Shown piece by piece: positions 1,301 to 46,142 of a DNA stretch of 64,000 nucleotides. The DNA comes from Escherichia coli (GTDB lineage: Bacteria; Pseudomonadota; Gammaproteobacteria; Enterobacterales; Enterobacteriaceae): NCBI RefSeq assembly GCF_011045215.1, contig NZ_CP049201.1; one strand, given 5' to 3'. The stretch's first letter is position 1. The number at the start of each line of letters is the position of its first letter. The notes under the pieces were generated by a model. It saw only the letters and a list, made by a program, of their open reading frames with translations. It had not been told where the DNA came from and did no database searches. The position numbers were made by a program, and so were the translations under genes.

Positions 1301-2752
1301 TTATCGCCGCCAGCGTCTGAGCAGGCGGCTTCGCATCCCGGTATCAAAGCGCCAGATATGATCGAAAATGCGCATGATGCCGGGTTTGCCATGTGCAGAC
1401 ATCGCCACGGCATGAAAGCGATGCTGATGTACCCGCTGCAGCTCTTTCACTTTACTCGTCACGTCGTCAGGCAACCGCTGGGCGATAAAATCAGAAATCA
1501 CCACCGCATCGGCATCAAACCATTCCCTGCTTTGCAAGCGTTCCATAATGGCGCGAAAACAACTGGCAAGATCGGTGCCGCCACGAAACTGCTGGCTTAA
1601 AAAACGGATTGCTTGTTCGATGCCTTGTGGGCCTGAAAGCTCATAACGGACGATCTCGGTGGAAAATAGCATAATATAGCAGCGCCGGTTTTCAGCGAGA
1701 GCAATGCGCATCAAAGCCAGGCAGAACGCTTTCGCACACTGTTCATTAAAGCCGCCCATTGAGCCGGAAGTATCCACGCAGACAATAAACGGTCCGCGCG
1801 GCTGTTCGTCGTAATCTTTATGCACCACCGGGCGTTCGATCACTTTTTCACGCCACGACTCACCGTGCAGGCGATAGGTGAGCAACTGTTTTTCCACCAG
1901 CCGACGGTAAAACTCATACTCCAGTTCCGTTATCCCTAGTGTCGCCAGTTCTGGCGGCAGAAGACGTAAAATATCATCGCTTTGTTGCAGACCATCAACC
2001 TGCTCAGGAACCGTCGCCGGTTCGCGCACCATGGTGCGGAAGGTTTCCATCTGCGCATCGTTGCGCGGTATTGATTTGGCTTCCCGGGAACGCCCCAGCT
2101 GTTCTGCCAGGCGTTTCAGTTCCGGCTGTTCGTTAAGAAATTCACCGTATTTCACAATCAACTGATAGTCGCCACGTTTAAGCTGACCGGCGCTCATATC
2201 CCACAGACGACCAGCTGCGGTATTGTTATCTGCGAGAATCGGTTCAAGTTGTCCGCTCAGCGTCATGCGTTCCTGAACTTCACTTAACAGTTGTTCGCGT
2301 TCTTCTTCTAATAGCTGTTGATTTAACGTCGTTGCTTGCACGATCAGACTTAAACGCCAACGCTGGAGGAAAAGCGTATGTAACGCTGAAGTGATCGTGC
2401 TGTTAGCATCAACCAACTGTCGGGCTTGTTCTGCCCATGGGGAATTCAGACGATGCAGTAAGTCCAGGATCTGTGGTAGCTGCACAATAAACTGCGGCGT
2501 GGAGAGGAGCTGGCTTTGCTGATAGCACATCACCTCTTCGGTGAGTTCCGGCGGGACTCGGGCATCTTTCAGCCGACTGCGCAGCGCCTCACGCCAGCGG
2601 GGAACATCATCAGTGATTGCCGCCTTCAGTCGTGGGAATTTTTCAAAGAAGACTGCCAGCTGCGGTGAGGCCAGCAGCGCGATGATCATCTCTTCGATCA
2701 ATCCCTCTTCGCTGACGGCCAGCATCACATTAAGCGTATCCAGCGTTAGCAT
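1301..2752 (-). CDS. viaA: VWA-domain protein ViaA (RavA partner)
   Basis: 483-aa ORF convergent with asnA, overlapping ravA stop; matches ViaA/YieM. Confidence 0.9.
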
Positions 2753-4242
2753 TGTTGTGCCTGGCGAATCTGTGCACTGACATCCTGTAGGCTGGCTTCA
2801 ATGCGACCTAACCAGTCGCCAGGGATAAACAGACATCTTTGCTGTTCGCTGAATAAAGCGTGTTGCTTGCGCCAGTCGCTTTCAAGCTCTTCCAGTTGTT
2901 GTTTTATTTCACCTGGCAGACCTTCAGCCGATGAACCGGGAAGTGCCAGCGTACTGCCTTGTAAACTTACATCGCGTACAACAAGATGTTGGGCGCTATC
3001 CACTTCCAGATTCAATTTCTGGGCAAAGCCGATACCGTTCAGTTTGCCGCGAATTTCACCACCTTTACTCAGCCACTGTTCCAGCGCGTTACGCTCAAAG
3101 GAGATATGAACCACTTCCATATCATGCAATTTTAACGGTTTTTGCAGCAGCAGAGTCAGAGTGGAAGCAGTAACGTTAACAGGAAGTTGATACTGCTGAC
3201 GACGGCTGAAAATGCCGCCCAGACGAATTACCGTTAAGGCTGTTTTATCGCTTTGTTGCTGCTGGAGTTGCAGGTGACGTTGCACAATCGCGCCAAGGCG
3301 AGTCAACATCCCTTGCTGTTGCCAGGCGTGACCGGTCATCAATACATCAATTTGTTGTTGTATCAAATTCAGGCTTTGCGCGTCATACCACAGGCAATCT
3401 TTTAGCAAAATGAGATCAACCGGGGCAACAGCACTGCGACCGCTAAAAAAGGCGCTGGCCTGCAATAATCGAATCGCTTTTTTCCAGCGACGATCCGAGA
3501 CATAAGGCGCATCCGGTAATTTATCCAGTTGCTGGCGCAGCATAAAAATCAGCTCAAATACATGATCGGGCAGCGTAATTTCACCAATCTCTTTCTGCCA
3601 GCGTTCATATTCTTCATCTGTGACCTGCAAGGAGGCTGGAACCGGATTGTCATTTTCATCCTGTTGACTGGTCAGCATGGAGCGGAAATTCGCTTTATCC
3701 TGCACTTTATCTAACCACAGACGAATCAGCATGCGGTCATATAACGCTTCCAGACTGCTGTCTGCTTCCGGCAGCTCGTTGGAGGCCGCCACCAGTAGAC
3801 GCATCGGGATTTTTTCTACGTGTGCACCGTTGCGGAACTGGCGCTCGTTAATGGCGGTGAGCAAGGTATTAAGAATTGCCGGGCCCGCTTTCCAGATCTC
3901 ATCCAGAAAGACAATTTCTGCTTCTGGCAGGTAACCGCTGGTTAAACGTTCATAGCGCCCTTCATCTTTTAGCGCCTGAATAGAAAGGGGACCAAAAACC
4001 TCTTCCGGCGTGGAGAAGCGAGTCATCAGATATTCAAACGCGCGGGCATTCTGAAAGGCGAATTTTAAGCGCCGGGCGATCAAACTTTTGGCAATACCTG
4101 GCGGGCCAAGGAGGAACACACTTTCACCACTTAATGCCGCTAATAAACACAAGCGGATGGCGTGGCTACGTTCATAAAGCCCCTTTTCCAACGAACTGCT
4201 CAGGCGGGAAATTCTTTCCGCTAATAAATGAGGGTGAGCCAT
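2746..4242 (-). CDS. ravA: AAA+ ATPase RavA
   Basis: ORF 2746..4266; start placed at internal Met ([14 protein letters not shown]...); Walker A GPPGIAKS present. Confidence 0.9.
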
Positions 4243-45476: not shown

Positions 45477-45926
45477 TCAATTTATGAGCGATATGGCATT
45501 GATTGACTTGATGACCGCCCTCTGTATGTCTGCAACCAACTCATGTGGCAAACATTGATTAAGATACCCTCTGTAAGTTCTTGCTCTGTTTAATCTGTTT
45601 CGACTGACTTGTTGTACCAGGTCGGCTTTGGCCCAACGAATCTGCTGATCAAAGAATTGCAGGTCATTGATAATATTACTGGCTATTTCAACATGCATTC
45701 CACGATTTAACTTGTCATGGTCGCGAGTGGTTGATAATGGAACGACGATACATGCGTTGCCATTAATTTTTCCGTTGAGCACGACAACTAACCTGTTTTT
45801 TATCATTTCAGGAGGAATGCGGCCATCGTAATACGTCGTGCTGAACGGCCCATTTTGGCTAACAGGATAGTTACCAAAGTTGCATTCCAGTATTTCACCA
45901 ACCTTAGGGCTGAAATTAATCGCCAC
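45477..45926 (-). CDS. yifN: PemK/MazF-like fold protein
   Basis: ORF 45477..45968; start placed at GTG after AGGAGAG SD; MazF-like patterns GEILECNFG, RLVVVLNG, CIVVPLSTT. Confidence 0.6.
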   Translation of the reverse strand: MAINFSPKVGEILECNFGNYPVSQNGPFSTTYYDGRIPPEMIKNRLVVVLNGKINGNACIVVPLSTTRDHDKLNRGMHVEIASNIINDLQFFDQQIRWAKADLVQQVSRNRLNRARTYRGYLNQCLPHELVADIQRAVIKSINAISLIN

Positions 45927-46142
45927 GAGTAAACCTCTCCTTAGTAAACTCTGAAAAAGTAATAACACAACGTTACGACCCGATATTTTCTAAGTCTAAT
46001 GGATTCACGATGAACTCCGATTTCGGTCTTCTCTCTCTGATTTAAACATCCGCAGCCAACCGGTTAGCGGCTTACACGCGGTCACATTCAAATGCGATTC
46101 TGCTACAATCCTCCCCCCGTTCGAAGATTGAGCAATACACCT

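Follow-up and report, generated by a model that had tools for sequence, protein, structure and literature searches.

The Escherichia coli PemK/MazF-family gene yifN and its downstream small RNA gene: a candidate type III-like toxin-antitoxin pair

Toxins of the MazF/PemK (Kid)/ChpBK group are the textbook type II toxins, each kept in check by a protein antitoxin, and MazF-like genes that look "solitary" tend to be written off as orphans. In type III systems (ToxIN, CptIN and TenpIN) the toxin has a fold of the Kid/MazF-like class, and its partner is a small non-coding RNA made of repeated units and transcribed in excess from a strong promoter; these modules are plasmid-borne and patchily distributed. 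AvcID and the phage AbiF system of C. difficile (PMC10511110, PMC12373285) offer precedents for phage defence in which one structured small RNA (sRNA), and no long array of repeats, restrains a toxic protein. The present analysis concerns a 64,000-nt stretch of the Escherichia coli chromosome (contig NZ_CP049201.1, hereafter the window), in which the open reading frame (ORF) at 45477-45926 (-) is the E. coli gene yifN and is followed by a 79-nt RNA gene. The two genes very probably constitute a functional pair, and together they are interpreted as one two-gene module, most likely a toxin-antitoxin pair of type III-like character (probability roughly 0.55). YifN resembles the MazF/PemK (Kid)/ChpBK toxins in its membership of PF02452, its fold, its apparent E-x4-R...S/T motif and its size class, and a dimeric SH3-like barrel is expected for it as in the MazF/PemK toxins. 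Unlike in MazF/PemK systems, no gene for a MazE/PemI/Kis-type antitoxin lies upstream of yifN, either here or in about 40 homologues, and the apparent partner is an RNA. The locus shares with type III systems a toxin of the Kid/MazF-like fold class, here a predicted endoribonuclease, paired with a small non-coding RNA that seems to be built of repeated units behind a strong promoter, on modules that are often plasmid-borne and patchy in occurrence. Unlike the type III toxins, YifN belongs to PF02452 and not to the ToxN/AbiQ, CptN or TenpN families, and PADLOC returned no match for it. It also differs from AvcID and AbiF, whose toxins are a deoxycytidylate deaminase and an Abi_2/AbiF protein, respectively, unrelated to YifN, and whose RNAs are unrelated as well.

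The sRNA gene starts 31 nt downstream of the yifN stop codon, behind a promoter that matches the sigma-70 consensus at 11 of 12 positions in a promoter scan and whose -35 element overlaps that stop codon; an intrinsic terminator is located ~70 nt beyond the promoter (Table 1). On direct reading, the same promoter and RNA follow the stop codon of almost all yifN homologues, in wholly different contexts. Copies of the RNA were searched for with an nhmmer profile and then with a covariance model (CM), R1 (80 positions, 18 base pairs), which gives one hit in the 64-kb window (45371-45445, 81.9 bits, E=3e-17); a second CM, R2, and direct reading were used for more distant loci. Wherever a genome locus contained a full-length homologue with ~39% identity or more, the nhmmer and CM searches detected a full-length copy of the RNA next to it (30-98 bits), and the RNA was present in all seven plasmids inspected. 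These loci span the Enterobacterales, Pseudomonas plasmids (pCAR1, p1448A), beta-proteobacteria and Legionellaceae, and a yifN-less E. coli locus gave no RNA hit. R2 and reading added a P. avellanae plasmid (38% identity), a 4.3-kb ColE1-type E. coli plasmid (31%), small plasmids of Glaesserella and Haemophilus, and the H. paracuniculus chromosome; weak RNA hits were also found just after homologues of 29-32% identity in an alphaproteobacterial (E 5e-4) and a planctomycete (E 5e-3) metagenome-assembled genome. No intact core-family yifN without the RNA was found among the loci examined. The genetic coupling of yifN and the RNA is thus shown across gamma- and beta-proteobacteria and many plasmids, and it probably extends to alpha-proteobacteria.

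A scan that started from the RNA, in which metagenome contigs were matched to the 20-mer GAGGRACYTGCRAARCCYRG, produced 112 matching stretches, 80 of which were read as loci. Twenty-six loci were confirmed by CM (63-97 bits), and a yifN homologue lies 30-70 nt upstream of the RNA in 25 of them; the 55 loci that were not confirmed (54 of them chance metagenome matches, the other the IMG/VR locus L066) include none with such a homologue. The one confirmed RNA that lacks a neighbouring yifN, at L096, is an orphan and has a poor promoter. In IMG/VR the RNA-first scan gave this single locus, L066, confirmed by neither CM. The RNA is usually encoded on the same strand as yifN, 30-70 nt past its stop codon, and as no terminator separates the two, transcription of yifN probably runs on to the terminator of the RNA; these features would suit an element that acts only in cis, either as a 3' untranslated region or terminator of yifN or as a DNA site of a mobile cassette, and does nothing in trans. 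Such an explanation is very improbable, as the position and strand of the element vary. In a Shewanella Rep3 plasmid contig the RNA is convergent with yifN on the opposite strand, and in Massilia and Herbaspirillum it is located ~800 bp upstream, again on the other strand, and Herbaspirillum has two copies. At the same time, in 32 of 43 loci the RNA 5' end is preceded at a fixed distance by a promoter matching the consensus at 9 or more of 12 positions, versus 0.6% of random positions. The variable placement and the conserved promoter therefore exclude a mere 3' untranslated region or terminator, and the discrete 79-nt transcript with a primary 5' end seen in strain K-12 and the tolerance of G-U pairs in the RNA stems argue in the same direction. 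The Vibrio "PE" elements (L179 and L184; 13 kb, Vinavirales-classified) carry, at one end, a PemK-like gene 19 nt downstream of a LexA/S24-like gene; downstream of these 27%-identical homologues a promoter and terminator were found, with no convincing two-hairpin RNA, and these distant relatives may use a different partner.

The transcript has been observed previously. Romero et al. 2014 (PMC4681348) detected an sRNA downstream of yifN, on the same strand, in strain MG1655 by differential RNA-seq and northern blot, and Table S5 of that study lists it as ecr3777(d+), 79 nt on the minus strand at 3,957,925-3,958,004, between ppiC and yifN/yifO. When anchored on the yifN end (PMC5460176), these coordinates map to window 45446/5 to 45367, which is the predicted transcript; ecr3777(d+) and the yifN RNA are the same molecule, reported only as novel and of unknown function. 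The same table notes that ecr3777(d+) was detected by Conway et al. 2014 too. In the searchable literature, ecr3777(d+) has been connected neither with yifN nor with any structure, nor with homologues from other taxa, and the E. coli, pCAR1, Glaesserella and ColE1-type copies of the RNA have no match in Rfam 15. A C>T change at MG1655 position 3,957,957, labelled "intergenic ppiC/yifN", was fixed in MG1655 over 1000 generations of simulated microgravity (PMC5460176); the corresponding position, ~45399 of the window, is in or beside the 5' arm of the sRNA terminator stem.

Read from its 5' end, the RNA comprises a 5'-GUA tail, hairpin 1, a U/C-rich linker, hairpin 2 and a long terminator stem. 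Across 36 distinct sequences, 94.9% of cells are paired and compensatory changes occur in 13 of the 18 base pairs, with a covariation score of 0.312 versus 0.149 in shuffles (0/500) and at most 0.088 in slid controls. The two local hairpins taken together are 95.8% paired, with compensatory changes in four of their six pairs. A nested fold, taken from the minimum free energy (MFE) of repeat-bearing copies, was rejected, with 63% pairing and no covariation. Both hairpins are versions of one unit that changes in concert between lineages. The E. coli units, GCC-CAUAGA-GGC and CCC-CUUGA-GGG, form an imperfect repeat; in the Pasteurellaceae CGG-CWUAGA-CCG occurs twice, with the stems swapped and the loops kept; the 4.3-kb ColE1-type plasmid carries UAGCCGCAAGGCAAGUU twice as a perfect duplicate, and the H. 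paracuniculus units are also perfect duplicates. Three units are present in the RNAs of Roseateles chitinivorans and Rubrivivax. Between E. coli and Superficieibacter the RNA shows zero substitutions, while the synonymous sites of yifN are saturated.

Table 1. Features of the yifN locus in the window
Feature	Position	Strand	Remarks
yifN coding sequence (CDS)	45477..45926	(-)	149 aa, intact; ORF list and PGAP CDS
yifN Shine-Dalgarno (SD) sequence AAGGAG	45937..45942	(-)	read from sequence; serves GTG start at 45926
sRNA sigma-70 promoter	45452..45480	(-)	-35 TTGACA 45480-45475, 17-nt spacer, -10 GATAAT 45457-45452
sRNA gene, 79 nt, probable partner of yifN	45367..45445	(-)	CM; K-12 transcript ecr3777(d+)
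RNA hairpin 1 GCC-CAUAGA-GGC	45431..45442	(-)	100% paired in 36 sequences; 2/3 pairs compensatory
RNA hairpin 2 UCCC-CUUGA-GGGA	45407..45419	(-)	inner 3 pairs 90-94% paired, with compensatory changes; outer U-A ~69%
Extended terminator stem-loop GCGAAGCCCGG / CCGGGCUUUUGC	45376..45403	(-)	96.7% paired; 8/11 pairs compensatory; MFE fold
yifN-rep divergent spacer	45927..46142		usual place of a type II antitoxin; antitoxin gene absent
~815-bp present/absent cassette, yifN and RNA gene	45295..46108		~40 bp instead in cassette-less E. coli

The conservation pattern of the RNA bears on whether it might act by base-pairing with the yifN mRNA, in the manner of a type I system that blocks translation or promotes decay. 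The pyrimidine-rich linker UUUUCUCCCC does resemble an anti-Shine-Dalgarno sequence, the E. coli yifN SD being AAGGAGAGG. This is nevertheless quite improbable, since RNAduplex energies between the RNAs and yifN initiation regions do not distinguish cognate from non-cognate pairs (-18.9 vs -19.6 kcal/mol, p=0.69), the 5' regions of the homologues share only an SD, which in several of them is weak, and the conserved elements of the RNA are the hairpin loops and not the linker sequence. A stretch of hairpin 2, CCUUGAG, is complementary to CUCAAGG in the ribosome-binding region of ppiC (45407-45416 / 45286-45295; inverted repeat I5, 10 nt, 90%). It could mark a local E. coli target, and is probably a chance match because the RNA family often occurs away from ppiC. 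Membership in a described RNA family was also considered: the Shewanella copy with its promoter (L035 719-824 (-)) scores 36.9 bits against the Pseudomonas rnk leader, RF01772, through an alignment that uses the promoter and terminator, and the E. coli and pCAR1 copies gave no hit to that model. As 36.9 bits is below the gathering threshold of 55, membership in RF01772 was rejected. The 3' parts of the Shewanella RNA and the rnk leader are alike (..GAGGGcucggaAAAcCCC.. vs ..GAGGGACCUGCAAAGCCC..), and the leader may be distantly related to this RNA or a remnant of it.

The protein encoded by yifN matches the Pfam profile PF02452 (PemK_toxin) over residues 38-141 with E=9.4e-11 and 42.3 bits (cutoff 23.1), and an NCBIfam search gave no match. 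A Foldseek search of the PDB with an AlphaFold model built on 33 homologues (predicted local distance difference test 78.7, predicted template-modelling (TM) score 0.73) returned MazF-family toxins as all of its top 47 hits, with probability 1.00 and target-normalised TM scores of 0.63-0.79. The type III toxin CptN (4rmo) is a weak hit at rank 48 (E=0.012). A sequence-only reading of the window had noticed MazF-like patterns in this protein and had proposed a profile search for the PemK/MazF family, and both the profile match and the fold search bear it out. Identity to the solved MazFs in the Foldseek matches is only 9-20%, and phmmer and hmmsearch comparisons with the solved structures gave no sequence-level PDB match, so that the link to MazF is drawn from Pfam and the fold search only and YifN is placed in a remote branch of the PemK/MazF family. 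The YifN family itself is tight, bears the JGI label "YifN (PemK superfamily)", and has members in Enterobacterales, Pseudomonas, Aeromonas, Shewanella, Roseateles, Herbaspirillum and others.

An alignment of 33 YifN sequences, with identity down to 44%, contains 19 invariant positions: P7, G10, C15, G18, P39, E40, K43, R45, N51, V62, P63, S65, W98, K100, V107, S108, R111, L112 and Q135. E. coli MazF (EcMazF) uses E24, R29 and T52, and B. subtilis MazF (BsMazF) R25 and T48, for catalysis and substrate binding. In profile-sequence alignments, YifN E40 and R45 correspond to EcMazF E24 and R29, and S65 to T52 of EcMazF and T48 of BsMazF; these alignments are weak (hhalign E 0.02-0.14), though the E-x4-R spacing is identical. 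The BsMazF sequence used agrees with PDB 4ME7. YifN thus appears to keep a catalytic motif of the MazF type, E40-x4-R45...S65, and the conservation of catalytic residues, which the sequence-only reading had marked for checking, holds within the family and is less firmly established in relation to MazF. YifN is ~38 residues longer than MazF, mostly through a ~20-residue insertion of low model confidence in the beta1-beta2 loop. Comparison of the E. coli gene with the syntenic Superficieibacter gene gave a ratio of nonsynonymous to synonymous substitution rates (dN/dS) of 0.048 at dS ~2, and YifN is therefore under strong purifying selection where intact. Among the PHROGs, YifN matches only phrog_15698, a family of unknown function.

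Because a PemK/MazF toxin would ordinarily be accompanied by a protein antitoxin, all ORFs of at least 25 codons around yifN in the window were listed. The spacer between the divergent yifN and rep genes is 216 bp long if rep is taken to start at its annotated ATG (46143) and 165 bp long if the longest rep ORF (start at 46092) is used; it contains only a 28-codon ORF with a TTG start and no ORF of antitoxin size, in agreement with the earlier statement that none is visible in the "170 bp" before rep. The only ORFs in the 198-bp yifN-ppiC spacer are one of 32 codons on the yifN strand and one of 47 codons on the other. The homologue loci comprised 49 from one-genome-per-species contigs together with metagenome and plasmid loci. 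Clustering of every ORF of 40 codons or more found up to 1.5 kb from 42 yifN homologues revealed no shared neighbour family; the only genus-spanning clusters were yifN and its own antisense shadow ORFs. The ORFs adjoining the homologues upstream are heterogeneous, mostly housekeeping or replication genes: those that abut yifN are mutually unrelated and include a Rep3 initiator, an HTH_36/DnaD_N protein, spurious high-GC ORFs and, judged from their sequences, a metallophosphoesterase-like and a methyltransferase-like ORF. The regions upstream of the homologues are not conserved, and Tandem Repeats Finder detected no tandem repeat in the window, ToxI-like repeats upstream of yifN being among the features not found there. 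An adjacent protein antitoxin was accordingly rejected, there being no ORF for one in either flank and no conserved neighbour beside ~40 homologues, and yifN therefore lacks the defining feature of a type II system.

The sequence-only reading, in which an antitoxin ORF was sought on the upstream side alone, had suggested that the protein is either an orphan or neutralised in trans. Its premise of a missing adjacent protein antitoxin stands, and its alternatives are undercut by the conserved RNA gene immediately downstream: as the RNA travels with the yifN homologues, yifN is neither solitary nor likely to rely on a distant antitoxin. That YifN is an orphan type II toxin held in check by a protein acting in trans (e.g., MazE, ChpBI or a lost partner), with the RNA unrelated, is improbable, even though no antitoxin ORF adjoins it, its PGAP name is that of a type II toxin, and orphan toxins are common in E. 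coli surveys (PMC10790755). Pseudomonas, Legionellaceae, Roseateles, Pasteurellaceae and small plasmids all carry the module, and one host antitoxin cannot serve all of these, while the linkage of 25 of 26 RNA-first hits to yifN does not suit an unrelated RNA.

The yifN gene is intact in the window, and in K-12 MG1655 it is a frameshifted pseudogene. The K-12 frameshift is a 1-bp deletion, CTTGTC[A]TGGTCGC, located at window 45700-45740. Alleles were counted by exact match of a 39-mer over the deletion site, and the frameshifted allele was found in at least 1228 complete E. coli genomes, with ~1082 exact matches to the intact allele at the site; because the exact 39-mer recurs in 1228 genomes, the frameshift is not a laboratory artefact. 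In a set of 13 E. coli-type gut contigs, yifN is intact in five, carries the K-12 frameshift in seven and has an internal deletion in one, and the RNA is identical in 13/13; the MG1655 RNA is identical to that of the eight gut contigs with a broken gene. Persistence of the RNA beside a broken E. coli yifN was read in MG1655 and these gut contigs. The RNA is likewise kept beside a degraded yifN in Rahnella and H. paracuniculus, and the orphan RNA at L096 belongs to the same pattern. Frequent loss of yifN with retention of the RNA is how a poison-antidote pair would be expected to decay.

Homologues of yifN occur on at least 120 PLSDB plasmids, 58 of these conjugative, including pCAR1, pND6-1 and p1448A-A. 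In Glaesserella p1613, Shewanella, Herbaspirillum and Massilia, yifN lies 2-19 nt downstream of a replication gene, whose product is a primase-C protein in the first of these, Rep3 in the second and an HTH_36/DnaD_N protein in the other two (replication gene-yifN coordinates: L180 520-2357; L035 22-723; L043/L046 ~2400-3650); this spacing suggests that yifN is co-transcribed with rep on small plasmids. On Haemophilus parainfluenzae pM1C124_1, a Tn3 end (blaTEM-40) at the extreme 3' end of yifN replaces its last codons (L181 1722-3430), and the original yifN 3' end, with the intact sRNA gene and promoter, is found 1.6 kb away across the Tn3 insertion. The PLSDB plasmids, the position behind replication genes and the PHROG match together support a mobile addiction or defence role. 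In the pCAR1-type IncP-7 plasmids (L064, 81-91 kb; L004-L007), the module is located within a long unidirectional run of small hypothetical genes, near an orphan N6-DNA methylase, a GNAT acetyltransferase and two protein phosphatases; the region resembles plasmid accessory or anti-defence regions.

The proximity to replication genes would also suit a different relationship, in which YifN is no toxin and instead a dedicated RNA-binding or RNA-processing protein (for maturation, stabilisation or delivery) whose RNA is a regulatory effector acting on host or plasmid targets, e.g., in replication control. The tight linkage and the covariation apply equally to such a protein, and the RNA is expressed in K-12 in the absence of functional YifN. 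Against it, the residues of the MazF catalytic type are invariant, a broken gene beside a surviving RNA is frequent and the opposite is never seen, which is the pattern of a harmful gene and its antidote, and a conserved target context between hosts is absent. This alternative is considered unlikely, though it has the best claim among those weighed here.

In the preferred interpretation, that of a type III-like pair, the chance that the RNA is a direct-binding antitoxin of YifN is put at even or slightly better. YifN would be a dimeric sequence-specific endoribonuclease, and the RNA, present in excess from its near-consensus promoter, would bind and block it directly, one hairpin unit occupying each active-site groove of the dimer as a pseudo-substrate or inhibitor. 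Loss of the module or an arrest of transcription, as by plasmid loss or phage infection, would allow the labile RNA to decay, and the stable YifN nuclease would then be freed and arrest growth, which could serve plasmid maintenance or abortive infection. Two hairpins that evolve in concert fit the two symmetric sites of a MazF-type dimer, and the antitoxin model would explain both the plasmid location, often directly behind replication genes, and the frequent inactivation of the E. coli toxin with the RNA gene kept. On evenly balanced odds, the locus would represent a new and widespread RNA-antitoxin (type III-like) family with a PemK/MazF-family nuclease toxin, one hairpin per dimer site, and a role in plasmid maintenance or abortive phage defence. 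The proposed range covers E. coli including O157:H7, IncP-7 and pPT23A-type Pseudomonas plasmids, and small Pasteurellaceae resistance plasmids.

Several observations weigh against this interpretation. Toxicity, nuclease activity and RNA binding of YifN are all inferred, and the linkage and covariation fit equally well an RNA that is a substrate or cargo of YifN; the covariation counts, moreover, come from an alignment fitted to the model. The YifN profile picks out no solved MazF by sequence, and the weakness of the alignments that connect the catalytic residues counts in the same way. With no PADLOC match for YifN, a direct tie to phage defence is absent. The RNA is also expressed in K-12, where yifN is a pseudogene, and may therefore have a role of its own. 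Finally, the organisation departs from that of described type III systems, in which the RNA lies upstream of the toxin with a terminator between them, whereas the yifN RNA is usually downstream with its own promoter; and type III antitoxins consist of 2-5.5 direct repeats of ~36 nt that form pseudoknots, whereas the yifN RNA consists of two or three short simple hairpins.

Both yifN and ecr3777(d+) are already known singly; their pairing, the RNA family and its breadth are undescribed in Rfam 15 and in the searchable literature, which most subscription journals are outside of. In that literature, mentions of "yifN" (often an optical character recognition artefact of IFN-gamma, i.e., interferon gamma) included no study of function, and nothing relevant was found on a PemK/MazF toxin with an RNA antitoxin. 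The interpretation supplies function hypotheses for an uncharacterised E. coli gene, for an E. coli sRNA without a role since 2014, and for a "type II toxin" gene on the PLSDB plasmids noted above, which include catabolic, virulence and resistance plasmids. As judged from sequence comparison, a whole conserved PemK subfamily (COG "YifN") would have swapped its protein antitoxin for a dedicated small RNA. If true, this would represent an evolutionary bridge between type II and type III systems and a compact RNA-protein pair (149-aa protein, 79-nt RNA) of possible use as a tool, and annotation pipelines would be systematically overlooking the RNA partners of "orphan" toxins.

The gene order in this part of the window is ilvY-ilvC-ppiC-yifN-rep-gppA. 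PGAP annotates the yifN CDS of a 100%-identical E. coli genome as a "type II toxin-antitoxin system PemK/MazF family toxin" (WP_000996686.1). In the alignment of the family, the shared N-terminus M-A/P-I-N-F coincides with the GTG start at 45924-45926. The longest yifN ORF, of 163 aa, begins at GTG 45966-45968 (-) without a Shine-Dalgarno sequence; Ribo-RET data (bioRxiv 10.1101/520783) show both the annotated and an upstream yifN start in K-12/BL21, and an N-terminally extended YifN isoform may therefore exist.

Together, yifN and the RNA gene occupy a cassette present in 3975 of 5426 complete E. coli genomes, the remainder (~1450) having ~40 unrelated bp in its place; strain ATCC 25922 is cassette-less, with a ppiC-rep spacer of only 86 bp. 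One cassette edge is 16 nt from the ATG of ppiC and the other ~35 nt from the ATG of rep, on the upstream side in both cases; ppiC and rep must therefore be driven by different promoters in cassette-plus and cassette-minus strains. The rep-yifN-RNA-ppiC arrangement is also found in Superficieibacter electus (L014). The longest rep ORF starts at ATG 46092, and the annotated Rep protein (673 aa) at ATG 46143; a palindrome, GCAGCCAACCGGTTAGCGGC (46052-46071), is located just upstream of a promoter-like site for rep (46081-46109). Between the convergent ilvC and ppiC genes, a hairpin with an 11-bp stem, AAGGCCTTCTCC/GGAGAAGGCCTT (44968-44992), looks like a bidirectional terminator.

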